Below are positions 26,534 to 51,902 of a stretch of DNA of 64,000 bases, in pieces (within the stretch, counting starts at the first letter, position 1; each line of letters begins with the position of its first letter). The notes beneath the pieces were generated by a model that was not told where the DNA came from, made no database searches, and saw nothing but the letters and a program-made list of their open reading frames with translations. Made by a program: the position numbers and the translations under genes. This DNA is from Enoplolaimus lenunculus (lineage: Eukaryota), in the NCBI GenBank assembly GCA_030248215.1, contig JASANG010001881.1:434001-498000 (forward strand). The letters run 5' to 3'.

Positions 26534-26732
26534 CAGGGTGTAACCGGATATCCGTTTTCGTTTCCGTTTCCAGTACAATTCGATGTTGAATATTTGCATG
26601 TCTCGATTGTATTGGCAGAAATATAAAAAATCCTTGAAAGTTTTATTACTTCAATATCCGTTTGGCGTTTCCGTTATTTGGGTAATTGTTTGTTTCCGTT
26701 TCCGTTATTGTTTACTATCCGTTTACACCCTG
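26534..26732. mobile_element. hAT-like MITE
   Basis: TIRs CAGGGTGTAACCGGAT / ATCCGTTTACACCCTG and an exact 8-bp TSD GTCCAAAT. Related ends at 310-324, 8775-9107, ~9250-9645 and ~55085-55158. Confidence 0.85.
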
Positions 26733-26936
26733 GTCCAAATGTGACAACTGCTCCAAAGAGGTATTTGTCAAACGAAAAATTGCCCTGCTTTTGGTAACTC
26801 GAACCTAAAATTTGTAATACAGGCAGACCTACGTTTAAGGTTTTGGCCCATGTTACGTAAAGGCCGTCCCATTGTCACGGGACAGCAACATACCAGGAGA
26901 TATGCACTCCTGTTTATATATGCACAGCCAATTATA

Positions 26937-27890
26937 TTATTGAGCGAAGCGAAACTCCGAGCGAAGCTCGGAGTTTCGCGAAGCGTTTTATGTTTTGTAC
27001 TTGGGGGTCGATAGGTGGATGTCCGTCCGTCCGTCTGTCCGAAAAGAATCTCAGGAACGGCTGAACCGATTTTGATAAACTTTTTTGTTTCAAAGCCAAT
27101 TATCCTGGGGTGTTAACCTCGCGTTGGGGTTTTAAAATTGCAAGCCGTTTAGTAGCTACAGGCTAATTTGCATAATTAATTAAGCCTAAATTAGGACTTT
27201 CCATAATATTTCACTAATTATTACAGTTAGAAGCAATCGAATTTTAGCATTAAAGGGGTTTTGGGTGCGAGGAATCTGCGTACACTGTTTACAAACCTCC
27301 AAAACCGATGATTGAGCAGTTAGCTAATAGATAATTTGCATATTATTATAGGTTATAAGCCTAAATTAGGACTTTTTACAATATTTCACTAATTATTAAG
27401 GTTAAAAGCAATAAAATTTCAGCACTAAAGGGTTTTTAGGTGCATGGAATGTGAATAAATAGTTTACAAACATCCAAAACCGATAATTGAATAGTTAGCT
27501 AATACCTAATTTGCATATTAGCTTAATTAACAAGACAAAACTGTGACTTTTTAAATTATTTCAATAATTTTTAGGGTTCACTGAAGGTTTTTGGGTGCGA
27601 GGAATCTGAATAAATTGTTTACAAACCTCCAACACCGATAATTGAATAGTTAGCTAATAGTTAATTTGCATATTAGCTTAATTGACGAGACAAAATTAGG
27701 ACTTTTTAAATTATTCCAAAAATTATAGGATGGCTGAAGGGTTTTTGGGTGGTAGGAATCTGAAGAAATTGCTTACAAACCTCCAAAACCGATAAATGAA
27801 TAGTTAGCTAATAACTGATTTGCATATTACCTTAATTGCTTACGTGTGTTCGAGCTTCGCTCAATAAATGTAGTTCCACTACGACTGGTA
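26937..27890 (+). mobile_element. Helentron-associated non-autonomous element (HINE/DINE-1-like)
   Basis: Subterminal inverted repeats TTATTGAGCGAAGC (26937) and GCTTCGCTCAATAA (27854-27867); 5' hairpin; (GTCC/GTCT)n microsatellite ~27021-27040; about four ~150-180-bp central repeats; 3' stem-loop GTAGT-TCC-ACTAC. Confidence 0.7.
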
Positions 27891-30669
27891 TGATATATTG
27901 TCAGGGACACTATCTTTCTCTATTCCATAAAAGGTTGGCTCGATTTAGCGAATCTTTAGGTGCACATGGATCTACAGTGGCATTGGCATTAGTATCATTG
28001 TATAATTGGCATGGTTGATAACATTATTGTTATTATTATTATTATTATTGTCGTGGTTATTATTATTGTTGTATATTTTGTGTGCGTTTTCCCTTCTTTT
28101 TTGATCACACATTATAAGGGCCATTTTTTGGTTCGGCGTAAGAGTACGGACAAATATTAGAAATCGCATTCAGACCCAGGAAACCCCGACTAGAAAGTGC
28201 AAGACTGGATCGCATGTAGTTGAAAACACATGGCGGAGCAGATTGTCGAATCGTAATCGGTAATAAGGGTATCATATTAACAACACTAGCGTGGCTAATG
28301 TATTTAAAGAAAAGCTGTTGGAGTACGTACACTCAGTTGTGGCACCCGGGGTGTGCAGTCTCTGATACGTAGAAATTTCACCCAGCGTGAGGCCCTCTTA
28401 AATTGATGCTGTTCTATTCTATTATATCTGTCCTTTTTGTTAAGCTTGCTGTGTTGTCATGTTCATATGTACGTATATGTATTGGCTACTTTCCTTCTTT
28501 GTTTTTGGACAGCCACATAAGGCCTAAATTTTCGTCTAAGATCGGCTTGAACTTTTGTTCTGTTTATAGAAACTTGTGACACACCCCTGAATTACTATCG
28601 TCCTTTCTCACTCCTTTTCGACGTAATTTCGCCTCGGATTGTCGGAATATTTGACTAGAACGTTTTAATTGCACGCTGCACTGACTAGAGCGTGTTACCA
28701 GAGTGCTGACTAGATCCCTAACTACAGATAGCACTTTAAAATTTGACTAGATAACGACCGGACCAACAATTAAGAATTTAACAAAAGTACTAGTCTCCTA
28801 GCACTTCCTTTCTTAGCGTTTCCTCCTCTGAAGATTAAAATTTCAAAACCTCCCAGTTGAGATTTGCAAGGAAAACCTATACTTAATAAATGCAGCCATA
28901 ACAGGGGCGCCTCCCTGACAGGGACAAGGGAGCCCCGGAGACCCGTTGTACCTGCCCATCCGGATGGCCGAGAGGAGTCTCAAATTATGTGCGAGTCGAC
29001 TTGTTCAGGGGGTTTCCGAGTTAGCCTACTAGCTCCCCTAATGTGGCCCTTGGTGTACATAAGTATTAGTATTTAAAATCGCCTTATAATATAGTGTACA
29101 CTAGATAAGGTGTGTACACAAATAGTGAAATTTATGAGTTGAAGATTGCTGGACTACCTATAGCTGGAGGTAACGGGAGCGCGGGGACCCAGGTCCAGCG
29201 CAAGATGGTATTAGCCACCCTCACTTTAATTCCGGCCTCGATATGCTGCTTAAAGGGGCCTCTGCCATCAATCCGTTGCTTGAAAATCAAGTTCCCAGTA
29301 CCCGAGCCCCTAGACGTTTCGGACCGTACATCGGTTACAAGAATTCGCAGAAACTAAGATGAAAATTGCAGTCACGTGTAAATGGTAGAACCTCAGAGGA
29401 AAATGGAGAGAGTTGACGATAGGGAGCTCATCGACTAGGGTTAGGAAAACGGGAGATCGTCCGGCGTACGGAGCTAGGAAACCCACTCATACGAAAGCCG
29501 TCCTAAACATTTCGACCGGGCCCGAGTTGATTGTAAGGGAATCCGCACCTTTATTGCATGGATTCAGGGCGCCTACCCGCACAGTATACCCCTTTCAATG
29601 AGTCTCAAAATTTTAAAACGACTAGAATTTCTATTGCACTCGCTGAAAATGATTAATGTGTTTTGCAAAGCATGCGAAGCCCCGGTTTCAAAAATTTTCC
29701 ACTGATGGGTAGTTGCTCGCGTCGAGGGGTTTTGAGATACGAGTTAGTGGTCAGAATACAAAAGGGGAATGGGTTTCCCAGTTTTCACCACTAGATTTTC
29801 CTAAGGCAATCTTTGTTCCGGCCCCGCGACGAGATCAGAGTTTTACATAGACGTAGACTTGCACGGAGGCCACCCAACGGATACGTATCTGTGTCCCCGG
29901 TGCAGTAACCGCAGCCTGTAGTATATTTAACGTTTACACACAATCTTACCGTCCAGCCAGAAACTGCGCTTTGAAGGGGGAGCCGCACGCTGTTTGCATA
30001 AGGAGCGGCGATATTTATCAGAGAGGGTAAGGGTGTGTTGTGCACCATAAGGGAAAAAGAAAGAAACTGTCTATAACGACAGTTGAGGGTTTTGAAATTT
30101 TATAAATTTTGAATTTTAAGTTAAGCAACGCCTCGCCTCAGCCTAAGGGGGGTAGTTAGTTTAGGATTGGGGGGTAGTTTTGTTTTTGTGTTCAGGGTAC
30201 GCCAAGGGGATAGGTGAAATTATGTTTTGCGCAGGCGCAACAGTATTTCTAGGAGGTAATCAAGTGGAGCGATGGCCGTCTGTCTCTTAGGACAACCGGA
30301 TTTTAGGATTCGAGGTCCGTTGTTTTATAATTTCAGGTGCGGAGCTGGCGCTCTTGGGTTCGGCACACCGGGTTGGCCGAGTAAGCCGTCCCGGCTGCCG
30401 TTTTAGGTCAGAAACCAGGATCTCGTGAAAATTTTGAATTTCTTGACACTTAAACTTTGAAATTTCTTTTCATTTTTAGGCTTCCTGGGGTTCTATATTT
30501 AGTATCTGTTGTCTTGGCCTTCTGTTTTGGCCGAGAAAGCCACTCCGAACCTGCGCAGTGAATCGTACGCTTGAAATTAGCGGGAATGTAGGTTATGAGT
30601 ATTGGTCGCGAGTTGGGTTTTTAGGAAATTTTGACTGCTATTTTACGGAATATAGCACGTAGGCTGACA

Positions 30670-31790
30670 TTAGGCAATTTCCCTGCATCGTGCCGACTAA
30701 GAAAATCACCCCAATTATAGCCCGCGATGCGGTAGTCAAAAGTTATAGACATTTTTAAACTTCGAGATTTTGCGCGTGTGCGTCCAGAGGCCCGGCTCCG
30801 AAAAATGCAATTTTCACTTTTCCGGAATCGGATGCTAAAATTAGTACCATTCGACTCAGCTCGCTGAGCTGATTAAGAAAATCACCCCGAACCTTATCCG
30901 GAAACCAATAGTTCGAAAGTTATGGGCTCCTGAAGTTTTCGGGATTCAACGTGTACACGCTTTACGGATCCCGGGTCCAAAAATGCAATTTTCACTTTTC
31001 CGGGATCGGGTGCTAAATTTGGTATCAATCGATTCAGCTCGTCGAGCTGGTTAAGAAAACCACCCCAAACCCTGTACGCAAACCAGTACTTAAGGAGTTA
31101 TGGTCAATCAAAGATTTCAAAGATTTTGTGTATGTACACTTTTACGGATCGGATCCTGAAAAACGCGATTTCCACTTTTTCACGATCCACCTTAAATATG
31201 GGTACCGTTCGATTCCGCGCATCGCGCTGAGTAAGAAAACCACCCCAAACAGGTCTCGCAAATCAAAACTTAAAAAGTTACGATCATTTGAAAATCTTTT
31301 ATAATTTACGTGTACACACAAATTACGGATCCGGTCCTGAAAACGCGATTTCAACTTTTTCGAGCTATTGGGTTAAAATAGGTATCATTCGATTCGGCTT
31401 GCTGAGTAGAGCAAGAAAACTACCCCGAAAAGGTTCGCAAACGAATATTTCAAAAGTTAGGGTCCGTTGAAAATTCTGAAAATTTGCGTGTATATGCTTT
31501 ACGGAGCGAACCTCAAGAGCGCGATTTTCACTTTTACAGGACCCAACGTTAAAAATGGCACCGTTCGATTTCTCTCGTCTTTCTGGTTCAGAAAAACCCC
31601 CCTAACAATGTCCGCAAGTGAATACTTAAGAAATTATAATCAACTGAAGGCTTGGGACTTTTGGTATTTTAGGCGTGCGATTTTCACTTTTCTGAACTAT
31701 AGCATTAAGTTGGGTGTTGTTTTGAACTAGTTCATTGTTCTGGTTAGCAGCATCACATCGAGTAGGGCTCGCTGATATATATTTAGGAGA
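30670..31790. repeat. ~180-bp diverged tandem repeat (about 6 units) inside LTR U3; copy at ~47880-49000
   Basis: Recurring ATTTTCACTTTT...TTCGATTC...AAGAAAA(C/T)CACCCC blocks near 30810, 30990, 31170, 31350, 31525 and 31680. Confidence 0.8.
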
Positions 31791-32564
31791 TTATGGCTCG
31801 TCAGGTTTTGCAAACCCGCACGTGTATACTCTGCGGAGGCATGCCAAATAAGTGAAATCACTAGTTTTCTGGGTTCCTAAATTCAAGATCGTTACCCTCC
31901 AACTGAACTAGTCTGGCTGGTCAAAAGGACCACCCGGTGGGGTCCCTTGCTGATGACTATTTAACGAGTTGCCGCTGGTCAAGACCACCATTCTCATATA
32001 CTTACGCCGTCCCAGCACTGAGTATCAACTTAAGGGTTAGAATTTGACCCGTGGGGGGGGAACGTGTGTAAGCCAGTTCATTGCGTAGGTTGTGGCTTCC
32101 ATGAAAAGGTCAATTAGAACAGTACGCTTGTGGAAATCTAGGCTTTGAGTCCTCTACAAAATCTTAGGCATACTTGTTCTCATTTTATTCTTTAATTTTG
32201 TGCATTCTCTGTTTGTGCGTATATATGATCTGTTTTTATTGTTGTTTTGTGCTTTCGGTTTTTTTTGGACATTGCACCCCTTCCATATGCTCTACCTTCC
32301 CGCAGTGCAGAGTCTACCCTTTTTCAAATGCTTGTATAGTAATTGGACTCTGTAGAGCGAGTACATAAGATAAAAAAAGGGGAAGCCCCCATAACTAAAG
32401 CTGCACGTGGTGGTCATGTTTTAAAGGGGGTATGAGTGAATCTCGTCAAAGTTTTTTTTTTTGTCCCTGTACCATGTTGCATCTCTGTGTCCTGACTCCT
32501 TCCAGGGGTGACTAGGATTAGTCCCCATAACTTCCCGTTCAGAAATTACACGTTAAATCTTCAG

Positions 32565-32742
32565 CCAATCACAGGCTTTTAAGAGTTAATTCTGTTCTCG
32601 TTTTCGTATTGGTTAGTTATATCTCGGAGAGTCTCAGCCAATGAAAGGGAAGTACAGCGTCTGTTTCTGGGGCGCGCTGATTGGTCGAAATTTGAGCTCC
32701 GCGCACATATATAAGAGCGCTGCACAGGCTGAACATTCAGTT
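32565..32742 (+). promoter_or_regulatory. LTR Pol II promoter: four CCAAT boxes, TATA box and initiator (predicted TSS ~32739)
   Basis: CCAAT/ATTGG at 32565, 32608, 32638 and 32680; TATATAAG at 32708; TCAGTT Inr with its A 31 nt downstream of the TATA start. The same layout is in the 3' LTR (TATA at 49917). Confidence 0.7.
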
Positions 32743-33946
32743 CAGTTTCATATTTTTCGGTTTTCGCTCGCGTGCTCGAGCCGCGACAGCAAACCGATCT
32801 CCCTGCACACGGAGGCGACTTAGTGTGCACGGGAGTTTCGGGGCGCTGAAGCAAGCAAGGGGGGGGTATGTGCGTTGCGCACGGGGGTCAAAATTTTAAG
32901 AGGGGGCCCAGTTAGGATTTTCAGTTTTCACAAAGGGGGTGTGGGTAAAATTTTGGGCTAAAATTTGCCTGACGTTGGCGACAACGCAGGTACGAAAGTT
33001 TTTGTATAAACCTTGGGGTGGGGGAAAACTCAAAATCAGAAAACCTGCAAGGAGGCGCCATTTGTGCGACAATTCTAAAGAAAATTAGGCACAATTTAGA
33101 TTGACAAATACGTTCGCAGGATTGATTGTCAGTGCGGTAGGGAGGCCAATTCAGCCTAATGCTAAGCATTTAGGATATGGCAACTAAAAGAGCTGAGGCC
33201 TACCGTCTAGAAAATTTCAATATACCCTGTGATTTGAGACGATTCTAGCCAGGCCCCAATGATCTAAGCTTGTGGCAAGGCCCGTCCAGTTGACAATCAA
33301 ACTGCTGAATGTACAGCCTGTGAAAATTTAAGCTTAAGGCTATGGAGCCGAGCTACACTCGGAAACAGACACGGCATAAGAGAGTAAACCTATAGAAAAC
33401 TTTTCTACAAAAACCTAATAAGTTTAAGTCTCGTGGTCTAATGTGAAACTATTTAGGCCCCGGTGCCCTTGTCTAGATCTCGCGGTTTTGACACGTGCAG
33501 CTTTTCAGAAAGGATTTAAAACAATCAGCAGTGAGCCCGACACAACAGCAAGTACAAGGGGAGCAAGGCATAAGGCGTATACTTTCGCATGTAGACTCGC
33601 CTATCGGTATACATAGGGATACATGCGGATAAGTAGCTGCGTTTCGGGCTCACTGTCCTAGGATATAACCTATTCTGCCGGGCAACACCAAAGACTCTTA
33701 AGGACATAGCTGTCGGTAAGACGAGCAATTAAGGCCTAGTTAATGCACGAGCCGTAGAGTAGAATAGTTGTGGTGAATTCTCAAATCAACAATTTTTCTT
33801 CTAGCGAATTACTATTTAACATTTTGAGTAGTCAGTAGATTGCTACCAAAATTCACTGCAATCGACGTAAATTTCATCGGTGCAATTCTATCACATAAGG
33901 TATACATTAAAAAGTGTCTGCGCTGTACATAGCTGTACAAACTCAT

Positions 33947-33952
33947 AATAAA
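33947..33952 (+). terminator. Candidate LTR polyadenylation signal (R/U5 boundary near 33970)
   Basis: AATAAA downstream of the predicted TSS, present in both LTRs; assignment is positional only. Confidence 0.35.
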
Positions 33953-34591
33953 CCAAAACTTTAACTCGAGTTCAGTCCTGAACCTTGAGCGCTCAGTTGA
34001 TTCCTGGCCTAAAGGCCATGGCTAAAATTTAGATAAAACTTAGAATTAAAAGAGGCTCAAACTTTTGCGTGAACGTGAAAAATTCCTGACCATCAGAGTC
34101 TCGACAAATGAATAACAGCCCTGGTTCGAATCAGTGGCAAGTCAAATCAATGAAAAAACCTCAAAGGCTAGGATCGATCCGCCTTTCTGTCAAAACGGTC
34201 TATGACCAGGTAAAGCAAAACCCGGTTGAACCAACCAATTTCTAGGACTAAGACTAAGGTTAAGCCATACCCATGACCGAGTATCAATAAGTTTAACCAT
34301 GAGAAAATGTTGAGGGCACACAGTTGTACTAAAATCCACGGAGAAAAAGCTAACTGTTACTGGTGCGGCCCACTTACACGCACTCGGGGTTCACTAGAGC
34401 TTAGAGCATAGGCAGGCTTAGGCGTATGACGATGTCGGGATTTTGTGACTCTCAAAACCTGATATCACGCCGGGGGACCGTCATCCTCTAGGCAAGTAGC
34501 TTACTTTGGCAGATCCACGGCCACGAACACCCGTGAGAGTATCATCTCGGATTCGTCCGCAGGGATACTCGTTGATCGTACCCGTAACACT

Positions 34592-34605
34592 TGGGGGCTA
34601 CTCCG
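34592..34605 (+). promoter_or_regulatory. Primer binding site, tRNA-Pro-like
   Basis: TGGGGGCTACTCCG lies 2 nt after the LTR end; it matches the classical tRNA-Pro PBS TGGGGGCTCGTCCG at 12 of 14 positions. Confidence 0.7.
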
Positions 34606-37359
34606 TGGAGAGAATTTTCTGTTTTCTGTTGTTCCTTAATTGAATTTCTTAAATTAACTTGCCTTACAGGCAATCTTTAAACTGTTAAATTGCTCGACCA
34701 ATTTTGACAAGTAGCCAAACCTAGACCATTTCCCCCACCTTATTGATTCAACTGTGTGCCTGCAACTATTCCTCAGAAAGTTTTGGTTTATAAGTATTAA
34801 TTTAATTAAGCTGTTTAAGTTTGGGGACCTCTCGCACAGGACTAGGCAAAACTCCGAGAGGTCTGCATTTCGCACACCTACTCTATATACTGGTGTTTTA
34901 AAATTCTGTTTTCGCAATTCTAAAACTAGCTGCTTCAGGTTTAGGCAAAATTCAAGCAGCTATGGCTTTCGCCCACCAAACTTAAGCTATATTAATCGAT
35001 TGTTGCAACTATACTAAGCAGGCTGCCCTCCTTAAATAAACTCTGGGCAGCCTATAATTACTCTGAATGGAATCGTACGTACTATTGTTTTAACCTTGCT
35101 ATGTACATATAGTGAACTTGTTGGGAGTTTGTTGAGCGTCCACTAACGAGTCCCTCCAAGGTTTTTAGCCCAAAATTCACAAATTCTGTGGCACAACGTA
35201 AAATTTCCATTGTGCTATCTAAGCTTTGTTCACCACCCTCAACCGGACGCCATTTGCTCGAATTGAGCACATGGTCCAAAGCTTGACAAGCTCCCAACAT
35301 CTTATGTAAGGCGCCTTACCCTCCCTTAGACCGGTTTCTTTTTCAATTACCGGGAAAATTTTCTTGAGCAAAACAATTACTCACACTATTTCGAAACCCG
35401 ACCTTCGATGGAAGGGATGCACAAGAACACTTACATAACCCGGGGAACAGTTGCGGTCGACTGCGGTTTCACGGCTATCTCACAATCAACTTGAGACTAA
35501 GATTACACATATTACAGCGTGCACCTTTCGACTGGGTGTATCGACAACATGCTAAAACCACACCTTTAGCCCAGAATAAAAGTAACAGCTCTAGCAAAAG
35601 TGTATAACCCCTTTGAAGCTATACCTTTTTGCCAATAACGAAAATCCTGCTTTTGGAAAACCCGCCCACATGGCACATTGTGCCTTCTCCCCAACGGATT
35701 TACGGGAAAATATGTGCACCACATTAGATAATTTTAATGCCTCCGTAGGGCTTAATACGTTTAGTCCGAAAAAGACTTCAAACTTCATCTAATAAGCGTG
35801 TTGCACATTTCCCGAATTTCCTAATTGAAATGAGTGCTCAGAGTTGGTAGCCCTTGTCAAATAGGCAACTAAAGCTGTTAAATACTGCAATTTTGCGGAG
35901 TCCCATTTAGTTCCTTTGAAATTTATGGGAAGTGGTAACTCACACCCCGCGCCAGAACCTACTGTTGTCCAACCCCAGTTACCCTAACTGGTCGGAACAG
36001 ATAGAATCAAGTCTGAGCACTCAAGCCAACGCGCAAAATGAATGCGGCGCCCATTCAATACGTACCTGAACAAAAATCTTAAAGCATATGAACATGTTTG
36101 ACGAGAGGAACTTGGAGGATTAGCTCTCTCTCCCAAATTACTTTGAATAGTCATTAAATTGAACCACTTTCGCAAGTCCAATTCACACCCCCAAGTTCCT
36201 CTCATGTTAGAGTATGCGCCACTAAAATTAAAAAAAAAAAAAAAAAGGAGATCGGATGCTGGGCCCAATTGTCCAAGCCACATCCGACACTACTAAATTT
36301 TATCCACAAACATGTACACTGCCGCCAAGGAAACTAAAATTCCCAACGAGAATTACTACCTACCCCGGAACACAAGTGTACCCATAATACAACCTGCCAG
36401 GAATTTAGCCTTAAAATCATAAAATGCAAGCGCATTAAGCTATAAATAAAAATTCAGTCCCTAGCGAATGTGCAGGTTGAACGCTCCCAATTTCAATCAA
36501 GGAGCTAAAATCAGATACTCCTGTCAGCTAATGTTAATTTAATTACAAATCCGTACCCTACGACAGGAAAGGAGTACTTGTGTAGTGCGCAGACACCGGA
36601 ACTAACATCGGTGGACGTTTACTTACCAGGTTTGCAGAACAAATCACCCCAAACTGTTATAATACTACACCTTGCCCCTACCCAACTCACCTCAGGATTC
36701 TGGTACGCGGTGAACCAAACCCTGGCAGCCCATAACGCTGTGTTCGACGCCACTTCGCAACCGGGCGGGATTTGATCACTCCCAACGGGTTTCGAGGGAA
36801 TGTACCTCCTTAAGGTCGGCCAGCCTATCGGGGGAAATTCAGGCTAAGAACCATGGTTGTGAAGGGGATGCCCGGTTTCCTGTAACCGGGTACCTTGCTA
36901 CAAATCACGTTGTGCGTTAAATTTGGAATAGTATACTCAATCATTTACCTCTGGGTACCCCACCACCCACAGTGCCCAAACCCCATTCGTAGTTGCCCAA
37001 AATTTAGGACACCGTGTATGCAAGTAAATAGTGTAGACCGCCTGCATGAAACACAACAAACATGTACCCCCTGCCTAGCAATACTCAGGAGTCCGTAAGC
37101 AAACAGAGAAAAATGGATGGAATAAAAGCCCGAGGGACGTATAGAACTTAAAACTAATATTGTTTTGCTGTCTTCAAATTACGGGTGACATATCTAATTT
37201 CTGAGCTTACGGAATCCTGGTACGTATCCCTAAAACCAGGTGAAACAAGCCCATAATTGTCGTGAGGGTGTTACCGCACTCAAACGCAAAATCTCGAGAC
37301 TTGACTTAACCGGCGACAACCAACTGAACTGAACTCACGCGGAAACCTGGAATTCTCCA

Positions 37360-40300: not shown

Positions 40301-41450
40301 GAGACATATAATTAAGAGGACACTTAAGAGAGCTTGTGGGATTAAACTGTCGGTTCCGGCTTCGGTGAATGTATATAAAAATTGTACAGAACCGACTTTT
40401 GGGCTTTTGCCTTGCACTTTTGTGCTCAGAAGACCCTTTGCAAGCTGGATCATTAAAACCGCTTTTGAAAAGCGGCTCTCGCAGCCGCAGAATGCACTAA
40501 TTAAGCCTACCTCGCTCATAACGAAAACTAATTAAGCAACGAAAAGATAGATAATTGACTAAGCAAGGTTTCTAAGCTCAAAAATAACCGTGACACCGCT
40601 CAGCAGTCACCAAAGAATGGGGTATCACCCAAGGTAAAAGTAGCCTTACTACTCAATCACATCGATACCTAGCTCCCCTAGTGTCACCCCGCTATATTAC
40701 TAAAGGGCATAGAGTGATCAGACTCAGAACTACCCAATTAAGTGGTGTTCGTGGGACAGAATCCTCTCCCTAAATCATTCACAGGGAACTGAGAGTACAA
40801 GCATGGGTGACAATAAGAACCATAACAAGCGCAGGTAGTGGAGTTACCGAACACTTAGTGTCACTAAATTTTGCTGCTACGTATGAAAGCTCGAGAGCAA
40901 AATGGTGTGTATACAGACGTAACTCATGATCAACGGGTAACGAAAATTCTGGCTCCATCCTAAAATCGGTTGACCATGCACCACCTACTAACCTATTATT
41001 CAAAAATTTACTGCTAAGAATGATCCTATAACTCACTAATGTCCCCTCCCTTAGATTTTAGCTGCTAATTTCTTGCACTCATTACCGTTTCGCAAATTTC
41101 TAATAAGCAATTTCTCTCTGTTAACAGGCAGTGCACTCAACGTGCAGTTAACAACAACGCTTGTGAAGAAATAATTTCAAGATGCACTTAAGAAAGGGTG
41201 CTGACCAAGTCTTGTCAATCCAGCTCGCAACGGTTGTACAGAACCGATTGTGAATAAACCAGCTCGGGTTTTTCCCATGCACCCCTTTTGGTGCAAAGGA
41301 GCCCTTTTAAGAGCTGGACCAGTAAACGTTTTTTTGAATGCGACTCTCGTAGTCGCAGTATGGTAGGCATGAGAGGTCCTTTTTCTTAAATTCAATAACC
41401 CCACACGAAAAAGGAAACCCTAACCGAATAGTAAAAGCCCTGTAGTGAGA
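37360..41450 (+). pseudogene. Heavily decayed gag-pol relic (zinc knuckle, protease, RT, RNase H, integrase)
   Basis: YFRCKKR..LQAE.C knuckle ~37370; QIDTG 38177-38191; RT-like FLVD ~39058, IDL..(D)YF 39155, MP...APT 39241, VHIEE 39348; FTALK...DF 39742; KEL 39883; ILGIT...CTE and GLLP...PF 40281-40440; WGIT..SS(P)YY 40618; VGMRVL...P...SP 41363-41445. Order is correct and spacing plausible, but there are many stops and frameshifts. Confidence 0.65.
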
Positions 41451-42180
41451 AAGAGAAACATCGAGAATACCAGTGCAAGCGCCGAAACTAGGCAGAAAAG
41501 ACTGCTATGACGGTCTCCAGGCAGGGCGCAGGAACCCGAGGTGTGGAAAATCTTAAGCCAGAATATCACACTAAGGGACAGAGCATTAGGACTTAATAGG
41601 AACCGAACGTATAATTGGTAGATCTACGATTTAGGATGTAAAATCGTCTTGAAATCCCTCGGAAACTGTGCAAGCGGAGAAATCTCACGCGAGTTGGATG
41701 TCATAAGGAGATATCATTTGAATTCTAGATCCTAACTCTACTCAAGAGATTGCGGCCCAACTTAAGAATATTTACCTGCTAAGCAAACTGTTGTAGGTCA
41801 CTTGCAAATCACATTGTCCCCTCCGTTCCCCGTCCCCATGCCTTTCCCCTGGCACTTCGGCAGAACTAGGGTGCCCTGAGCTATGTGTGCTAGCACCTTT
41901 ATAAAGATATAGTCTGCTGTATAAAATTATATTCGCCACATCAGATCCTGATAAGGCTTCAGAGAGCCACCAAAATTTGAACATATAACCGGCCTACCCG
42001 TTAAGTCGCCCAAAACTCCGAAACTCCAAAAAATTAAAGTAACCGGCTCCGGGCTGTATCACCCGCCGCCGCGTTAATGGCCGGATATTTCCTCAGCTTA
42101 TTCATATCCTCATGGTAAACTTTTGTTTTCTTGAATGTCATAACTAACCTCGCCTTGAAAAATGAATTATAGCAAAAGCT

Positions 42181-42577
42181 CATAGCAACAACAACAACAA
42201 GTAGCAGCAACAACAACAACAAGTAGCAGCAACAACAACAACAAGTAGCAGCAACAACAACAACAAGTAGCAGCGACAACAACAACGACCAGCGGCAACA
42301 GCAGCAACAACGTCAACAATAGCAGTAGCAGCAGCACCACAACTGCCGCTACTACAACAACAACAACAAGAGCAACAACAGCAGGGGCAACTCCACAACA
42401 ACAACAATCGAAACTGCAGCAACGCCTGCAACAAAAACAAACAACAACAACAACAACAACTCCAACAGCAACAACCACAGCAATCACAACAACCGCAACT
42501 ACAACACCAAACCAGCCGCAACCACCACAACAACAACCACCACCACCACCACCAACATCAAACACAACAACAGGGTC
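42181..42577 (+). repeat. (CAA/CAG/ACC)n low-complexity tract directly upstream of the 534-aa ORF
   Basis: Visible trinucleotide-type repeat containing no ATG; an in-frame TAG at 42326 means the ORF frame is not open through the whole tract. Confidence 0.9.
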
Positions 42578-44182
42578 ATGGCTGATTTCCGAGGCTACAA
42601 CAACCCTGAGAACGGCGGTGAGGATGGCTTCAGTGAAGAAAGCCAATCCGGACGCCGTGCCGAGGTTTTCGGCGATGACCCCGTCCCAGAGTACTCCCTG
42701 AACCCCCGCTACGGTCCCCCAGCCCCCCGCGACACCACACGCCCCGCCCTCCGACTATCCGCCCTCCCCGGCACCGCGCAGGTCCTCAGCCTGCTATTTG
42801 TTGGCTTGGCGTTCCAAACGCCACTTGGCGCGGCCTGGTGCGTCATCCAGGTCCTTGGCGCGGCGTGGCATTATATTCGCCACGACCCGACTGCAACCGC
42901 CAGCTGGATGATGGCGACCGCGTCGGATTGCCGGGACTATGTCTGTATAGGCATCCCGCCTCCCGGCGATACGCTCCATCGTCTTGGACGTGAGACGATG
43001 TTAGAGCCGCTTGTGTACGCTCTGACGTATCACAAGTTCGCCGCTCCGGGGATGCGGGAACATCTCCGCGGGATCTCAGAGTATCAGGTCCTTTACTGCG
43101 ACCCCTGGGATCCCGTACTCGGCACCGGCGAGGACGTAGACGGAGTCCAGAACACTCTGGAACTCGTTACCCAGTACAACAACATCGCCGGCCGCGCCAT
43201 TGAGGACCTCGCGCGGCACTATGATCATGGCAGCCAGTACTATCGGCGCCACATCATAGTCGGCGACGAGTCAGCCTACCCGCTGTGGGCTGAGTACTAC
43301 GGCGACCCGGATGTCGCTGTAATCGCGTTCCCCGGCGCCGACATACCGACCCTGTGCCGGATCGCGCGTCTGGTAGCCACCCCTTTGGTATTCCGCATCA
43401 CGATCTGCGGTGGCTACCACTCCGTCTTCGCGTGGACAGGGCGTACTTCCAACCCACGGGACGACGGCGCATACTACCACGAGCAGTCGGGGTCAGTCAA
43501 CAGTCGGTACTTCGAAGAACTCATCACCGACCAACTGAACCCTGGCACCGTGGCGTACTCAGTGTATGCGCACATCTCGGAGCTCGCCTCCGAACTTCAA
43601 GACAGCCCGCGGGTCACCCTCCTGCCCCCGATGCCCCTCAGCGAGCTGTCCTGCACCGCCCGCGCCGTGCTCGAAGGTTACCTGGCAATGGTGGAGTTCT
43701 ACTCACATGGAGCTCCCTACTTCTACCATTGCAGCCTGGATTACCTCTTCCACGGCGTCCCCGACAGTGAGCTCGCTGAGCGCTACCTGCACACTGGGGG
43801 ACCGCTACCACTACCGCAGCTGGTCAAGAAGATGCGGCCAACACTCGACCTGCCCTTCAGGCGAGACCTGTGCGTGCGGCAGCTCCCCTGGGCCTCCCCG
43901 TCGTCCAACCAGCCCGCCCTTCCCAGCAACATTCCTTTGGCCCCCGGACAACTCACACAGTCCGAGCGGGTGGAAGAACATTTGCGGCGAATGGCGGAAG
44001 AAGCTGGGCCGCCGCGCGAGGGTGATCGAGAGGATCCGGTGGAAATCCCACCTGAAGACCCGGTAGTCATCACCCCCGTGCAGAGAGCAAGATGGAGGCG
44101 CGAGTTGGGGTTACGCCGATTAAGGGCGTGGAACGCTGAACTTATGGCGATGTACAATCGTTTTGGCTCCCGGGAAACTTAA
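42578..44182 (+). CDS. Intact 534-aa accessory ORF of the LTR element; putative SGNH/GDSL-fold domain with N-terminal hydrophobic segment
   Basis: Longest ORF in the window, markedly GC-richer than its flanks. Motifs IIVGDES (aa ~226-232), VIAFPGADI (~248-256), ITICGGYHS (~274-282), VTLLPPMP and RYLH (~402-405) are ordered like SGNH blocks I, II, III and V. Confidence is high for the ORF and moderate for the fold. Confidence 0.8.
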   Translation: MADFRGYNNPENGGEDGFSEESQSGRRAEVFGDDPVPEYSLNPRYGPPAPRDTTRPALRLSALPGTAQVLSLLFVGLAFQTPLGAAWCVIQVLGAAWHYIRHDPTATASWMMATASDCRDYVCIGIPPPGDTLHRLGRETMLEPLVYALTYHKFAAPGMREHLRGISEYQVLYCDPWDPVLGTGEDVDGVQNTLELVTQYNNIAGRAIEDLARHYDHGSQYYRRHIIVGDESAYPLWAEYYGDPDVAVIAFPGADIPTLCRIARLVATPLVFRITICGGYHSVFAWTGRTSNPRDDGAYYHEQSGSVNSRYFEELITDQLNPGTVAYSVYAHISELASELQDSPRVTLLPPMPLSELSCTARAVLEGYLAMVEFYSHGAPYFYHCSLDYLFHGVPDSELAERYLHTGGPLPLPQLVKKMRPTLDLPFRRDLCVRQLPWASPSSNQPALPSNIPLAPGQLTQSERVEEHLRRMAEEAGPPREGDREDPVEIPPEDPVVITPVQRARWRRELGLRRLRAWNAELMAMYNRFGSRET

Positions 44183-45112
44183 TTGTTTCCTGCCTCACGG
44201 CAACTGGAGGTATCTATGGGCCGAGATACCCCCGGTCGGGAAGCCACATGATTCGCTAAACGCGCTGACACTGTAGGACCACCCATAAACTTGCGGCCCC
44301 AGATAATTAGGTTATAGACAGCAAACCTTGCGCTTAGCATGCCGTAAAGAGTTTCAACGCTGCATCTCCCTTTCCCTTAGAGCTAGGCTCGAGTCTAGCA
44401 ACAGTGTCAGTGCCTTGGACTTGGCTCACGCAACACAGGCGCAGGGACGTACCGTTCAGGAGATAAGGGTTGACACAAATTGCCAAATCTAAAAATCTGA
44501 GAGAAGGAGAAGGACATTGCTCAGGGGAGCGTTGCTTTCGTTGCTTTTATGAGCTGCATACGCATAGCAAACAAACTAAGGCCCAGAGATGTTTCTAATG
44601 TGTCAGAAGCCCAAACCTGGACGGATCGCACCCCTGTAACCCAGCTTAAAATTGTATCAAATGTGACATTTTACAGACTGCGATAGGACGCTATTGGAAG
44701 CTGGGTGCAGCCCGTGTATGCGCAATATCTTTTTACCGGATGCGTCGCTTAGCACATTGGGGCAGATTTATAGTCGGCCGGGCCATAGAAAGCTCGCTGC
44801 CTTTGAACTAGGCAAACCCATTACATTTTCTAATATAAGGAACAACCGCCCATTGCCATCGCCGGATTATTGGCACCTATAATGAAACTCCATGTGCGCA
44901 TATAGTGTTGTTGTTGTTGCTCAATCACTCTTGTTCAATACTTGTATCGTATTTCGGGTATATATGTATATGTTTTGTGGTTGTTGGAGTCGAGTGGAAG
45001 GAAGTTGACTTGGTGTGTAGGCATAAATTTAGGACAACCAAGAAATACGCCAGCCATAAACCCACAAGGGATAAGGGTTAACACGAAATATCCAAATTAA
45101 AATTTTATGAGG

Positions 45113-48100
45113 TGTCAGGGACACTATCTTTCTCTATTCCATAAAAGGTTGGCTCGATTTAGCGAATCTTTAGGTGCACATGGATCTACAGTGGCATTGG
45201 CATTAGTATCATTGTATAATTGGCATGGTTGATAACATTATTGTTATTATTATTATTATTGTCGTGGTTATTATTATTGTTGTATATTTTGTGTGCGTTT
45301 TCCCTTCTTTTTTGATCACACATTATAAGGGCCATTTTTTGGTTCGGCGTAAGAGTACGGACAAATATTAGAAATCGCATTCAGACCCAGGAAACCCCGA
45401 CTAGAAAGTGCAAGACTGGATCGCATGTAGTTGGAAACACATGGCGGAGCAGATTGTCGAATCGTAATCGGTAATAAGGGTATCATATTAACAACACTCG
45501 CGTGGCTAATGTATTTAAAGAAAAGCTGTTGGAGTACGTACACTCAGTTGTGGCACCCGGGGTGTGCAGTCTCTGATACGTAGAAATTTCACCCAGCGTG
45601 AGGCCCTCTTAAATTGATGCTGTTCTATTCTATTATATCTGTCCTTTTTGTTAAGCTTGCTGTGTTGTCATGTTCATATGTACGTATATGTATTGGCTAC
45701 TTTCCTTCTTTGTTTTTGGACAGCCACATAAGGCCTAAATTTTCGTCTAAGATCGGCTTGAACTTTTGTTCTGTTTATAGAAACTTGTGACACACCCCTG
45801 AATTACTATCGTCCTTTCTCACTCCTTTTCGACGTAATTTCGCCTCGGATTGTCGGAATATTTGACTAGAACGTTTTAATTGCACGCTGCACTGACTAGA
45901 GCGTGTTACCAGAGTGCTGACTAGATCCCTAACTACAGATAGCACTTTAAAATTTGACTAGATAACGACCGGACCAACAATTAAGAATTTAACAAAAGTA
46001 CTAGTCTCCTAGCACTTCCTTTCTTAGCGTTTCCTCCTCTGAAGATTAAAATTTCAAAACCTCCCAGTTGAGATTTGCAAGGAAAACCTATACTTAATGG
46101 ATGCAGCCATAACAGGGGCGCCTCCCTGACAGGGACAAGGGAGCCCCGGAGACCCGTTGTACCTGCCCATCCGGATGGCCGAGAGGAGTCTCAAATTATG
46201 TGCGAGTCGACTTGTTCAGGGGGTTTCCGAGTTAGCCTACTAGCTCCCCTAATGTGGCCCTTGGTGTACATAAGTATTAGTATTTAAAATCGCCTTATAA
46301 TATAGTGTACACTAGATAAGGTGTGTACACAAATAGTGAAATTTATGAGTTGAAGATTGCTGGACTACCTATAGCTGGAGGTAACGGGAGCGCGGGGACC
46401 CAGGTCCAGCGCAAGATGGTATTAGCCACCCTCACTTTAATTCCGGCCTCGATATGCTGCTTAAAGGGGCCTCTGCCATCAATCCGTTGCTTGAAAATCA
46501 AGTTCCCAGTACCCGAGCCCCTAGACGTTTCGGACCGTACATCGGTTACAAGAATTCGCAGAAACTAAGATGAAAATTGCAGTCACGTGTAAATGGTAGA
46601 ACCTCAGAGGAAAATGGAGAGAGTTGACGATAGGGAGCTCATCGACTAGGGTTAGGAAAACGGGAGATCGTCCGGCGTACGGAGCTAGGAAACCCACTCA
46701 TACGAAAGCCGTCCTAAACATTTCGACCGGGCCCGAGTTGATTGTAAGGGAATCCGCACCTTTATTGCATGGATTCAGGGCGCCTACCCGCACAGTATAC
46801 CCCTTTCAATGAGTCTCAAAATTTTAAAACGACTAGAATTTCTATTGCACTCGCTGAAAATGATTAATGTGTTTTGCAAAGCATGCGAAGCCCCGGTTTC
46901 AAAAATTTTCCACTGATGGGTAGTTGCTCGCGTCGAGGGGTTTTGAGATACGAGTTAGTGGTCAGAATACAAAAGGGGAATGGGTTTCCCAGTTTTCACC
47001 ACTAGATTTCCCTAAGGCAATCTTTGTTCCGGCCCCGCGACGAGATCAGAGTTTTACATAGACGTAGACTTGCACGGAGGCCACCCAACGGATACGTATC
47101 TGTGTCCCCGGTGCAGTAACCGCAGCCTGTAGTATATTTAACGTTTACACACAATCTTACCGTCCAGCCAGAAACTGCGCTTTGAAGGGGGAGCCGCACG
47201 CTGTTTGCATAAGGAGCGGCGATATTTATCAGAGAGGGTAAGGGTGTGTTGTGCACCATAAGGGAAAAAGAAAGAAACTGTCTATAACGACAGTTGAGGG
47301 TTTTGAAATTTTATAAATTTTGAATTTTAAGTTAAGCAACGCCTCGCCTCAGCCTAAGGGGGGTAGTTAGTTTAGGATTGGGGGGTAGTTTTGTTTTTGT
47401 GTTCAGGGTACGCCAAGGGGATAGGTGAAATTATGTTTTGCGCAGGCGCAACAGTATTTCTAGGAGGTAATCAAGTGGAGCGATGGCCGTCTGTCTCTTA
47501 GGACAACCGGATTTTAGGATTCGAGGTCCGTTGTTTTATAATTTCAGGTGCGGAGCTGGCGCTCTTGGGTTCGGCACACCGGGTTGGCCGAGTAAGCCGT
47601 CCCGGCTGCCGTTTTAGGTCAGAAACCAGGATCTCGTGAAAATTTTGAATTTCTTGACACTTAAACTTTGAAATTTCTTTTCATTTTTAGGCTTCCTGGG
47701 GTTCTATATTTAGTATTTGTTGTCTTGGCCTTCTGTTTTGGCCGAGAAAGCCACTCCGAACCTGCGCAGTGAATCGTACGCTTGAAATTAGCGGGAATGT
47801 AGGTAATGAGTATTGGTCGCGAGTTGGGTTTTTAGGAAATTTTGACTGCTATTTTACGGAATATAGCACGTAGGCTGACATTAGGCAATTTCCCTGCATC
47901 GTGCCGACTAAGAAAATCATCCCAATTATAGCCCGCGATGCGGTAGTCAAAAGTTATAGACATTTTTAAACTTCGAGATTTTGCGCGTGTGCGTCCAGAG
48001 GCCCGGCTCCGAAAAATGCAATTTTCACTTTTCCGGAATCGGATGCTAAAATTAGTACCATTCGACTCAGCTCGCTGAGCTGATTAAGAAAATCACCCCG

Positions 48101-51100
48101 AACCTTATCCGGAAACCAATAGTTCGAAAGTTATGGGCTCCTGAAGTTTTCGGGATTCAACGTGTACACGCTTTACGGATCCCGGGTCCAAAAATGCAAT
48201 TTTCACTTTTCCGGGATCGGGTGCTAAATTTGGTATCAATCGATTCAGCTCGTCGAGCTGGTTAAGAAAACCACCCCAAACCCTGTACGCAAACCAGTAC
48301 TTAAGGAGTTATGGTCAATCAAAGATTTCAAAGATTTTGTGTATGTACACTTTTACGGATCGGATCCTGAAAAACGCGATTTCCACTTTTTCACGATCCA
48401 CCTTAAATATGGGTACCGTTCGATTCCGCGCATCGCGCTGAGTAAGAAAACCACCCCAAACAGGTCTCGCAAATCAAAACTTAAAAAGTTACGATCATTT
48501 GAAAATCTTTTATAATTTACGTGTACACACAAATTACGGATCCGGTCCTGAAAACGCGATTTCAACTTTTTCGAGCTATTGGGTTAAAATAGGTATCATT
48601 CGATTCGGCTTGCTGAGTAGAGCAAGAAAACTACCCCGAAAAGGTTCGCAAACGAATATTTCAAAAGTTAGGGTCCGTTGAAAATTCTGAAAATTTGCGT
48701 GTATATGCTTTACGGAGCGAACCTCAAGAGCGCGATTTTCACTTTTACAGGACCCAACGTTAAAAATGGCACCGTTCGATTTCTCTCGTCTTTCTGGTTC
48801 AGAAAACCCCCCCTAACAATGTCCGCAAGTGAATACTTAAGAAATTATAATCAACTGAAGGCTTGGGACTTTTGGTATTTTAGGCGTGCGATTTTCACTT
48901 TTCTGAACTATAGCATTAAGTTGGGTGTTGTTTTGAACTAGTTCATTGTTCTGGTTAGCAGCATCACATCGAGTAGGGCTCGCTGATATATATTTAGGAG
49001 ATTATGGCTCGTCAGGTTTTGCAAACCCGCACGTGTATACTCTGCGGAGGCATGCCAAATAAGTGAAATCACTAGTTTTCTGGGTTCCTAAATTCAAGAT
49101 CGTTACCCTCCAACTGAACTAGTCTGGCTGGTCAAAAGGACCACCCTGTGGGGTCCCTTGCTGATGACTATTTAACGAGTTGCCGCTGGTCAAGACCACC
49201 ATTCTCATATACTTACGCCGTCCCAGCACTGAGTATCAACTTAAGGGTTAGAATTTGACCCGTGGGGGGGAACGTGTGTAAGCCAGTTCATTGCGTAGGT
49301 TGTGGCTTCCATGAAAAGGTCAATTAGAACAGTACGCTTGTGGAAATCTAGGCTTTGAGTCCTCTACAAAATCTTAGGCATACTTGTTCTCATTTTATTC
49401 TTTAATTTTGTGCATTCTCTGTTTGTGCGTATATATGATCTGTTTTTATTGTTGTTTTGTGCTTTCGGTTTTTTTTGGACATTGCACCCCTTCCATATGC
49501 TCTACCTTCCCGCAGTGCAGAGTCTACCCTTTTTCAAATGCTTGTATAGTAATTGGACTCTGTAGAGCGAGTACATAAGATAAAAAAAGGGGAAGCCCCC
49601 ATAACTAAAGCTGCACGTGGTGGTCATGTTTTAAAGGGGGTATGAGTGAATCTCGTCAAAGTTTTTTTTTTTGTCCCTGTACCATGTTGCATCTCTGTGT
49701 CCTGACTCCTTCCAGGGGTGACTAGGATTAGTCCCCATAACTTCCCGTTCAGAAATTACACGTTAAATCTTCAGCCAATCATTGGCTTTTAAAAGTTAAT
49801 TCTGTTCTCGTTTTCGTATTGGTTAGTTATATCTCGGAGAGTCTCAGCCAATGAAAGGGAAGTACAGCGTCTGTTTCTGGGGCGCGCTGATTGGTCGAAA
49901 TTTGAGCTCCGCGCACTATATAAGAGCGGTGCACAGGCTGAACATTCAGTTCAGTTTCACATTTTTCGGTTTTCGCTCGCGTGCTCGAGCCGCGACAGCA
50001 AACCGATCTCCCTGCACACGGAGGCGACTTAGTGTGCACGGGAGTTTCGGGGCGCTGAAGCAAGCAAGGGGGGGTTATGTGCGTTGCGCACGGGGGTCAA
50101 AATTTTAAGAGGGGGCCCAGTTAGGATTTTCAGTTTTCACAAAGGGGGTGTGGGTAAAATTTTGGGCTAAAATTTGCCTGACGTTGGCGACAACGCAGGT
50201 ACGAAAATTTTTGTATAAACCTTGGGGTGGGGGAAAACTCAAAATCAGAAAACCTGCAAGGAGGCGCCATTTGTGCGACAATTCTACAGAAAATTAGGCA
50301 CAATTTAGATTGACAAATACGTTCGCAGGATTGATTGTCAGTGCGGTAGGGAGGCCAATTCAGCCTAATGCTAAGCATTTAGGGTATGGCAACTAAAAGA
50401 GCTGAGGCCTACCGTCTAGAAAATTTCAATATACCCTGTGATTTGAGACGATTCTAGCCAGGCCCCAATGATCTAAGCTTGTGGCAAGGCCCGTCCAGTT
50501 GACAATCAAACTGCTGAATGTACAGCCTGTGAAAATTTAAGCTTAAGGCTATGGAGCCGAGCTACACTCGGAAACAGACACGGCATAAGAGAGTAAACCT
50601 ATAGAAAACTTTTCTACAAAACCTAATAAGTTTAAGTCTCGTGGTCTAATGTGAAACTATTTAGGCCCCGGTGCCTTTGTCTAGATCTCGCGGTTTTGAC
50701 ACGTGCAGCTTTTCAGAAAGGATTTAAAACAATCAGCAGTGAGCCCGACACAACAGCAAGTACAAGGGGAGCAAGGCATAAGGCGTATACTTTCGCATGT
50801 AGACTCGCCTATCGGTATACATAGGGATACATGCGGATAAGTAGCTGCGTTTCGGGCTCACTGTCCTAGGATATAACCTATTCTGCCGGGCAACACCAAA
50901 GACTCTTAAGGGCATAGCTGTCGGTAAGACGAGCAATTAAGGCCTAGTTAATGCACGAGCCGTAGAGTAGAATAGTTGTGGTGAATTCTCAAATCAACAA
51001 TTTTTCTTCTAGCGAATTACTATTTAACATTTTGAGTAGTCAGTAGATTGCTACCAAAATTCACTGCAATCGACGTAAATTTCATCGGTGCAATTCTATC

Positions 51101-51797
51101 ACATAAGGTATACATTAAAAAGTGTCTGCGCTGTACATAGCTGTACAAACTCATAATAAACCAAAACTTTAACTCGAGTTCAGTCCTGAACATTGAGCGC
51201 TCAGTTGATTCCTGGCCTAAGGGCCATGGCTAAGATTTAGATAAAACTTAGAATTAAAAGAGACTCAAACTTTTGCGTGAACGTGAAAAATTCCTGACCA
51301 TCAGAGTCTCGACAAATGAATAACAGCCCTGGTTCGAATCAGTGGCAAGTAAATTCAATCAAAAACCTCAAAGGCTAGGATCGATCCGCCTTCCTATCAA
51401 AACGGCCTGTGGCCAAGTGAAGCAAAACTCGGTTGAACCAACCAATTACTAGGACTAAGGCTAATGTTAAGCCACACCCATGACAGAGTGTCATTAAGCC
51501 TAACCATGAAAAATAGTTGTGCGCACATAGTTGTACTGAACTCCACGGAGAAAAAGCTAATTGTTACTGGTGCGACCCACTTATACGCACTCGGGGGTTC
51601 ACTAGAGCTTAGAGCACAGGCAGGCTTAGGCGTACGACGATATCGGGATTTTGTGACTCTCAAAACCTGATATCACGCCGGGGGACCGTCATCCTCTAGG
51701 CAAGTAGCTTACTTTGGCAGATCCACGGCCACGAACACCCGTGAGAGTATCATCTCGGATTCGTCCGCAGGGATACTCGTTGATCGTACCCGTAACA
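45113..51797 (+). repeat. 3' LTR (6685 bp)
   Basis: Copy of 27899-34589; followed by the ATAT TSD. Confidence 0.95.
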
Positions 51798-51902
51798 ATA
51801 TTACATAACATATATAAAAAATATATATTTAGTACTGAGAATGCGGTGTATTGGGGCAGTTTTTAATTTTCTCTGGGGAGGTCTAGCTGCAGCAACCCCT
51901 TA

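Follow-up and report, generated by a model that had tools for sequence, protein, structure and literature searches.

The stretch analysed here, a window of 64,000 nt from contig JASANG010001881.1 of Enoplolaimus lenunculus, contains a 23.9-kb element at 27899-51797 (all coordinates are positions within the window). We consider it probable that this element is a long terminal repeat (LTR) retrotransposon that has no gag or pol, owes its mobility to enzymes likely supplied by a Gypsy-type relative, and carries one intact gene for a predicted dead NADAR-SGNH fusion. A self-BLAST of the window revealed a single dominant direct repeat, 27899-34589 versus 45113-51797 (6,692 columns, 99.0% identity). 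The two LTRs make up 56% of the element, 10.5 kb lie between them, and only 1.6 kb are coding. The element is delimited and composed as follows:

27895..27898, no strand: left target-site duplication (TSD) ATAT (flank comparison)
27899..34589, plus strand: 5′ LTR, 6,691 bp (self-comparison; termini)
34592..34605, plus strand: primer binding site (PBS) of the tRNA-Pro type, TGGGGGCTACTCCG (likeness to the Cer1 PBS in PMC3315495)
34606..42185, plus strand: non-coding interior of about 7.6 kb, no trace of gag or pol, multi-copy in public runs (frame, motif and contig searches)
42186..42572, plus strand: CAA-rich tract directly 5′ of the ATG (composition; frame of the open reading frame (ORF) stop-free from 42329)
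42578..44182, plus strand: intact ORF of 534 aa (frame analysis, composition)
45107..45112, plus strand: position of the polypurine tract, only ATGAGG behind an A/T run (sequence inspection)
45113..51797, plus strand: 3′ LTR, 6,685 bp (self-comparison; termini)
51798..51801, no strand: right TSD ATAT (flank comparison)

Statements on papers cited by PMC number refer to the excerpts available of each. Both LTRs start with TGTCAGG and end with GTAACA (TG...CA termini), and 8 of the 12 terminal bases form an inverted repeat. An earlier, sequence-only reading of this DNA had described two LTRs of approximately 6.69 kb, a 4-bp TSD, a PBS and an intact 534-aa ORF, and all four were recovered. The TSD reads ATAT in either flank and is no longer than these 4 bp; the insertion site is AT-rich, so that the duplication is weak when taken alone. 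The PBS lies 2 nt beyond LTR1 and is identical to the tRNA-Pro PBS of Cer1 at 10 of 14 positions (PMC3315495). Matches of this level occur five times in the whole window, counting both strands and including the one at 34592.

No gag or pol could be found between or within the LTRs. A Pfam search with the six X-read-through frames of 34590-42579 matched no family at E values up to 1, and the three plus-strand LTR frames yielded just one sub-threshold DUF; the minus-strand LTR frames were covered by the motif check. Patterns for reverse transcriptase (RT), protease (PR), RNase H (RH) and CCHC were absent from all six frames of LTR and interior. Four loose HHCC matches and one GPY match were considered as remnants of gag or pol and rejected, being either broken by stops or located in repeats or in a chance context. 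The longest stop-free stretch of the interior is 144 codons, a length equalled in 52 of 200 Markov controls, and stop density is flat across the interior. Thus, gag-pol is deleted or decayed past recognition and no dead copy is visible in place; the "dead gag-pol" of the sequence-only reading has to be replaced by an absent or unrecognisable one. Since LTRs, TSD and PBS are present without gag and pol, the element is non-autonomous and depends on enzymes supplied in trans. It is no autonomous Ty3/Gypsy element, having neither gag nor a pol of PR, RT, RH and integrase (IN). It is no TR-GAG either, in which the retained ORF is a Gag: the ORF shows no CCHC motif or Gag family, and its sole homologue is a NADAR-SGNH protein.

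LTR anatomy, the U5 patch and the age of the insertion

The LTRs can be divided into the following parts:

27899..34589, plus strand: predicted U3 of about 4.84 kb, R of about 1.23 kb and U5 of about 0.62 kb (placed by promoter and poly(A) motifs)
30791..31648 (48002-48859 in LTR2), plus strand: degenerate tandem array of about 180-bp units in U3 (self-comparison, repeat search)
32565..32745, plus strand: predicted promoter with four CCAAT/ATTGG boxes, TATA at 32708 and initiator (Inr)-like TCAGTT at 32737 (motif scan)
33947..33952 (51155 in LTR2), plus strand: AATAAA, predicted poly(A) signal (motif scan)
33984..34434 versus 51192-51642, plus strand: U5 patch, 8.3% Kimura two-parameter (K2P) divergence between the LTRs (LTR alignment)

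According to the CCAAT, TATA and Inr motifs, transcription would start 4.84 kb into the LTR, and the AATAAA at 33947 would place the end of R near 33970. The positions of promoter and AATAAA imply a genomic RNA of approximately 18.4 kb. Further A[AT]TAAA hexamers are located nearby at 33906 and 34045. An additional AATAAA in the U3 of the 5′ LTR (28885-28890) reads AATGGA in the 3′ LTR (approximately 46096), an adjacent double transition; the 3′ LTR is the copy in which a U3 AATAAA could shorten the genomic RNA. A donor-like site in R (32989), an acceptor-like site at 41127 and a TATA-like box at 41920 are possible routes to a separate message for the ORF.

Altogether, LTR1 and LTR2 differ by 56 substitutions (0.84% over the whole LTR), which are distributed unevenly. 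The sequence-only reading had counted about 25 differences over the first 6 kb by eye, and this agrees with the 21 substitutions and 4 indel events that we found in the first 6,085 bp. It had missed the next 451 bp, which carry 35 substitutions and 4 indels; the final 155 bp show none. This patch begins approximately 30 nt past the AATAAA and holds 35 of the 56 substitutions. By region, U3 has 14 substitutions in 4,838 positions, R has 7 in 1,237 and U5 has 35 in 616 (U5 against the rest, p=5e-23). In 5,000 simulations with uniformly placed substitutions the densest 451-bp window carried 15, compared to the 35 observed. A three-tier model with separate divergence levels for U3, R and U5 was dropped, as R and U3 do not differ significantly (p=0.17); together they diverge by 0.29-0.35%.

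Variants within the family of related copies were compared with the two LTRs for 40 of 1,824 variant records. At all 12 variant sites listed for U3 and R, LTR1 and LTR2 agree with each other. At the five listed U5 sites the family-majority letter is present in LTR2 three times, in LTR1 once and in neither once. The terminal 155 bp contain no family variant at 10% or more among those listed. This pattern makes it likely that one of the two U5 regions came from another family member. The exchange might have involved a co-packaged RNA during reverse transcription or later gene conversion; both would fit equally. Recombination between co-packaged RNAs at strand transfers has been documented, and mosaics are described in the same excerpts, with the standard scheme yielding identical LTRs (PMC6894440, PMC5651808). 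To regard a difference confined to U5 inside one element as a recombination product is our own inference and goes beyond these two papers.

Because of the U5 mosaic, dating by the whole LTR is invalid. At a nematode rate of 2-3e-9, the divergence of U3 and R would correspond to an insertion age of about 0.5-0.9 million generations. The claim of a recent insertion holds in an evolutionary sense for the 0.3% over the 6.07 kb of U3 and R, and not for an alignment of the complete LTRs. The locus illustrates how LTR dating can be misled by a mosaic restricted to U5, with 0.84% for the whole LTR and 0.3% without U5.

The 534-aa ORF and its product

The ORF stands out by composition, with 62% GC and 72% GC at third codon positions (GC3), compared to 43-46% GC in the remainder of the element. 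Among 500 shuffles no frame exceeded 364 codons, compared to the 534 of the ORF. An exhaustive phmmer search against 1.84 billion representative proteins returned a single match, P0001 (374 aa; E 4.2e-5, 26% identity, query 144-294). Pfam recognises two domains in P0001, NADAR (E 3e-19) and behind it GDSL_2, whose E value of 7e-4 falls short of the curated cut-off; the sole PDB match of P0001 is YbiA. The alignment with the ORF spans the junction between the NADAR and SGNH domains. P0001 is itself a NADAR-SGNH fusion, and the motifs of either domain appear to be intact; it forms a singleton cluster and is encoded on a 1,858-bp JGI/IMG contig.

Four segments of this pair, chosen from the alignment itself, were compared with 3,000 shuffles each. 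For the C-terminal half of NADAR and for SGNH blocks I-III against the GDSL part of P0001, none of the 3,000 shuffles was as good. A phage NADAR profile, built from 7 stretches of the 25 listed among 86 records, aligns in register to ORF residues 145-193, with 16 of 2,000 shuffles as good. The shuffle result for blocks I-III argues for SGNH/GDSL homology there, starting at approximately aa 222 of the ORF. The protein would be composed of a degenerate NADAR-like part (about aa 70-213), an SGNH-like part from about aa 222 and a Pro/Glu-rich linker; a low-confidence model adds a possible Arg-rich C-terminal helix at aa 500-529. The NADAR motifs SNF, [ST]xEH and E-x-x-x-x-D-x-x-WG are present in P0001 and in nearly all of the phage rows. 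The ORF retains KF, D and G of these motifs and is without EH, E and W. Likewise, other residues stand at the positions of the SGNH Ser and Asn, and no alignment is obtained for block V. As these residues are replaced, the predicted product of the ORF is a pseudo-enzyme: a NADAR-SGNH fusion without catalytic activity.

Further searches with the ORF were negative. No match was found in a word-indexed homologue search, whether for proteins of similar, greater or smaller length, in the ESM Atlas with the whole protein or with aa 215-430, or among PDB sequences, and neither the ORF nor P0001 matched the viral and metagenome contigs searched. Single-sequence AlphaFold models had a predicted local distance difference test score (pLDDT) of 37 and 36 and are unusable. 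With these low-confidence models Foldseek gave nothing at E ≤0.001 (2hsj, which we take to be an SGNH-type chain, ranked 9th with E 0.36), and the VIA fold comparison reached a best Z of 6.0, no notable fold match. An env reading of the ORF was rejected, as N-glycosylation motifs are absent from the protein and just one region of it is moderately hydrophobic. Arg-rich motifs and nuclear export signal (NES)-like motifs (six matches to the consensus in the protein) are too common to count.

For a test of constraint we used the diverged contig pieces listed, 10 of them with at least 20 differences, after one duplicate had been dropped. Substitutions and gap columns number 97 and 3 in the 2 pieces within the ORF, against 251 and 32 in the 8 pieces outside it (p=0.014). 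The low share of gaps is modest evidence for coding constraint on the ORF. The two ORF variants listed comprise one silent and one non-silent change. Both NADAR and SGNH domains recur as accessories of retroelements (PMC12477816, PMC5408684). The gene is probably a retroelement accessory module and not host cargo: the preserved gene of the sequence-only reading is indeed intact, and the term cargo is better replaced by a NADAR-SGNH module of the retroelement type.

A duplicated motif of approximately 115-130 bp was identified in the interior upstream of the ORF. Its copies are 850 bp apart and are not found in the LTRs or the flanks:

40382..40494, plus strand: motif copy 1, shared GCAC/GUGC hairpin (score 83, shuffle maximum 43)
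41234..41362, plus strand: motif copy 2, shared GCAC/GUGC hairpin

The fold z value is -3.65 for copy 2 and only -0.69 for copy 1, and Rfam contained no match for the motif. It is a candidate for a cis-acting RNA element and a putative target of the ORF protein.

Related copies, mobilisation and rival explanations

Related copies were sought in three public DNA runs (2 samples, 1 study). The assembly may derive from one of them, and they are therefore not independent. Summed contig depth does not equal copy number, and ratios of depth are to be read as orders of magnitude. When 26600-46500 is divided into 30 bins, contigs from all three runs are present in every bin, and variant records run into the thousands. 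At the end of LTR2 the summed depth drops approximately 250- to 560-fold, from 87,033, 156,390 and 24,403 to 154, 288 and 94, respectively. U5 has 2.0-2.8 times the depth of the leader, a ratio that two LTRs in each element and additional solo LTRs would produce. The median depth of private contigs is 20.8 (X1) and 51.7 (X2). Near-identical contigs of the distal U3 reach 1.8-2.2 times this median, near-identical ORF contigs 12-16 times, and one LTR-end contig 45 times; in X3 an 85%-identical ORF variant has 35 times the distal-U3 depth. This suggests a large and diverse family in which many members have the promoter, U5, leader and ORF, and a small subfamily to which the distal 2 kb of the LTR belong. 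No RNA run is among the runs listed with sequence of the element.

The proposed route of mobilisation follows established LTR biology. Transcription would begin at about 32738, at the TATA/Inr promoter 4.84 kb into the 5′ LTR, and would end at about 51180, by the AATAAA of the 3′ LTR, which gives an RNA of about 18 kb. This RNA would be packaged by the Gag of a putative helper and primed with tRNA-Pro by the helper RT, and the helper integrase, probably of the Gypsy type, would insert the copy with a 4-bp duplication. The sequence-only reading had proposed a family mobilised in trans by Gypsy. Its non-autonomous part agrees with LTRs, TSD and PBS in an element without gag and pol and with the multi-copy relatives; the Gypsy part is probable, the pointers to it being the TG...CA ends, the 4-bp TSD and the Cer1-like tRNA-Pro PBS and nothing else. 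As to the ORF protein, we offer the tentative guess, by analogy, that it might be a non-catalytic binding adaptor for the long RNA of the element itself, acting in export, packaging or shielding. Such a role would explain why a parasite element keeps the ORF. An unlikely extension of this idea is that the element represents giant satellite retrotransposons of animals, with LTRs that match or exceed the longest quoted from plants and with gag and pol shed. Their NADAR-SGNH pseudo-enzyme, kept under selection, would read ADP-ribose marks or bind the hairpin, would export and protect the 18-kb RNA, and would perhaps serve a helper that is without it, in the manner of a split retroviral genome.

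Several observations weigh against the reading of a non-autonomous, trans-mobilised element with a NADAR-SGNH gene. Homology of the ORF relies on one protein at 26% identity; the N-terminal half of NADAR is marginal (139 of 3,000 shuffles as good) and the C-terminal SGNH part does not match (2,730 of 3,000). The phage NADAR profile scores only -1.6 bits on the ORF, which matches no family in Pfam, PHROG or NCBIfam. In abundant contigs there are joints that leave out 65 and 116 nt of the ORF, and some copies may have lost it. The distal approximately 2 kb are low-copy, and the 6.7-kb LTR with the left end seen here may be that of a small subfamily only. A canonical polypurine tract was not found ahead of LTR2: within 100 bp there is no purine run of 9 or more, and the closest long one is located at 44499-44514. 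Of the contig that crosses the right junction with 0 differences, 23 nt lie within the LTR, fewer than the 31 nt that the tool requires. Among the loose ends listed (739 further rows) no second flank or empty site was seen, which is not evidence of absence.

The low-copy distal U3, together with a depth that varies more than 100-fold along the element, the mosaic U5 and the weak polypurine tract, would also fit a one-off chimera. Here, ectopic recombination or template switching would have joined the modules, and the combination of a 6.7-kb LTR with an interior free of gag-pol would not be a replicating unit; the LTRs of most relatives would start elsewhere, and some relatives may be autonomous. 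We hold such an origin to be unlikely, because the whole 6.7 kb is common to both LTRs, which share their letters at the 12 U3/R variant sites and are flanked by a clean TSD, so that exactly this structure went through one round of reverse transcription and integration. In addition, multi-copy relatives were seen for each bin of the non-coding interior. That the repeat is an assembly artefact or a segmental duplication, and no retrotransposon at all, is very improbable: no read or contig spans the element and the distal-U3 depth could fit one homozygous LTR if the depth of private contigs is the haploid figure, but the two copies differ by 56 substitutions and have four different flanks. Furthermore, TG...CA ends, TSD and PBS stand at the exact boundary, depth drops sharply at the LTR end, and the contig over the right junction shows 0 differences.

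Two further alternatives concern the partner of the element. The helper could be a BEL/Pao, Copia or other LTR element instead of Gypsy, as the element contains no enzyme by which to classify it. This is quite unlikely in view of the PBS, which resembles that of the Gypsy-type Cer1 family, and of the 4-bp TSD, which is commoner in animal Gypsy than in BEL/Pao or Copia elements. Somewhat less likely still is a bipartite, complementing pair in which a helper without the NADAR-SGNH gene depends on this element for it. The ORF is intact, apparently constrained and found in near-identical as well as 85%-identical subfamilies, as such a pair would have it. However, non-autonomous elements like TelKA2n keep an accessory ORF without dependence of the helper (PMC5408684), and the only relative, P0001, lies on a 1,858-bp contig without context.

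Known systems, significance and neighbourhood

Large retrotransposon derivatives (LARDs) are not known to have protein-coding capacity. They and other large non-autonomous LTR elements have been reviewed (Kalendar 2004 as summarised in PMC6431247; PMC13570524), and LARDs are defined by size as non-autonomous, longer than 4 kb and with long LTRs (PMC13570524). The element shares with them a size above 4 kb, long LTRs, PBS, non-coding interior, lack of gag and pol, presumed trans mobilisation and recombination between modules. It differs in its animal host, its 23.9 kb and the intact accessory gene of 534 aa; the material between LTRs is stated to be rarely above 10 kb (PMC6431247/PMC13570524), compared to 10.5 kb here. 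It behaves like a LARD-type non-autonomous element, probably derived from Gypsy, but is no strict LARD, because an intact gene is retained.

Ogre elements, plant Gypsy elements of 16-25 kb in total with LTRs of 1.9-6.5 kb and extra ORFs of unknown function, are similar in dimension (PMC6431247). They are autonomous, and the LTRs found here are slightly above the quoted Ogre maximum. The planarian Gypsy element Burro is likewise a giant animal LTR element with accessory domains, but it owes its size to the coding region (up to 25 kb internal, more than 30 kb in total; PMC6431247), whereas here 56% is LTR and 1.6 kb is coding. The cqUNK elements of Culex are animal non-autonomous LTR elements with no known master copy and, among the rows listed, reach at least about 14.6 kb; their LTRs are 200-340 bp among these rows and they have no intact gene (PMC3286476). 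Cer1 of Caenorhabditis shares the tRNA-Pro-type PBS and, in contrast to the element, has gag-pol (PMC3315495).

For the ORF protein, the Cer1 accessory protein CERV offers an analogy only: it has 517 aa, contains an inactive G-protein-like alpha/beta domain and exports genomic RNA (PMC10309623), and is thus similar in size and in having an enzyme-like but inactive domain. Rotifer Vesta LTR elements contain an SGNH domain in an ORF shortly before the 3′ LTR, and a membrane or ribonucleoprotein (RNP) role has been proposed for SGNH domains of retroelements (PMC5408684). In Vesta ORF3 the catalytic residues are retained and NADAR is missing, whereas blocks I and III are substituted here and block V is unrecognisable. 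Retrotransposon-borne NADAR domains are found in Pol of Ectocarpus Gypsy elements and in ORF1 of the oyster Tx1 LINE (PMC12477816). Those are conserved and part of Pol or ORF1; the one described here is degenerate, fused to SGNH and encoded by a stand-alone ORF of a non-autonomous element.

Word searches of open papers, judged for the most part by their listings, yielded no animal element with such long LTRs and no NADAR-SGNH fusion. The excerpts of PMC13524379, PMC11410931, PMC11118728, PMC13195028 and bioRxiv 2026.07.01.735732 contain nothing on LTR length or the ORF gene. Three features are new: LTRs of such a size in an animal, retention of a predicted NADAR-SGNH pseudo-enzyme, and a mosaic restricted to U5. 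The size range of animal LTRs is extended to that of the largest plant LTRs, and pol-less elements this large are likely overlooked by homology-based annotation. LTR finders with default length limits likely overlook them as well. With its enzymes borrowed and one accessory gene kept, the element provides a natural test of which functions are required in cis. A NADAR-SGNH fusion would be added to the accessory modules common among retroelements, which hints that ADP-ribosylation could matter in the conflict between host and transposon.

The element is inserted between repeats. On its left it adjoins a very high-copy repeat (26937-27889) with 14-bp subterminal inverted repeats, TTATTGAGCGAAGC, a GTCC/GTCT microsatellite, central tandem repeats of 155-175 bp and a 3′ hairpin, a layout that we take to be of the non-autonomous Helentron/DINE-1-like type. 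At its end, 27889, 185 and 165 contigs depart. About 100 bp to the right of the element a second high-copy interspersed repeat begins at 51900, and dozens of contigs with other left flanks start at 51900/51902.

A Ser/Arg/Tyr-rich host ORF of about 250 aa (22973-23740, minus strand), intronless in appearance and without a Pfam family, is located 4 kb from the insertion. Probable host-gene exons at 62140-62607 and 57714-58082 (both minus strand) gave a W02B3.4-like N-terminal match with E 0.16, below the cut-off, and presumably belong to a fukutin/LicD-like gene; if they join, the element sits downstream of that gene. Several tRNA-derived repeats in both orientations (16568-18054, 12297-12578) are likely a short interspersed nuclear element (SINE) family, and 17231-17303 is a tRNA-Val(GAC) according to ARAGORN and not according to Rfam. 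Dispersed repeats of approximately 200 bp with TTAGGC-like runs occur at 23883-26071, 56346-56535 and elsewhere; TTAGGC is the nematode telomere unit, and from these repeats, together with the sub-threshold W02B3.4-like match, a nematode host is likely. A minisatellite with 26 copies of a 19-20-bp unit is located at 53445-53958.

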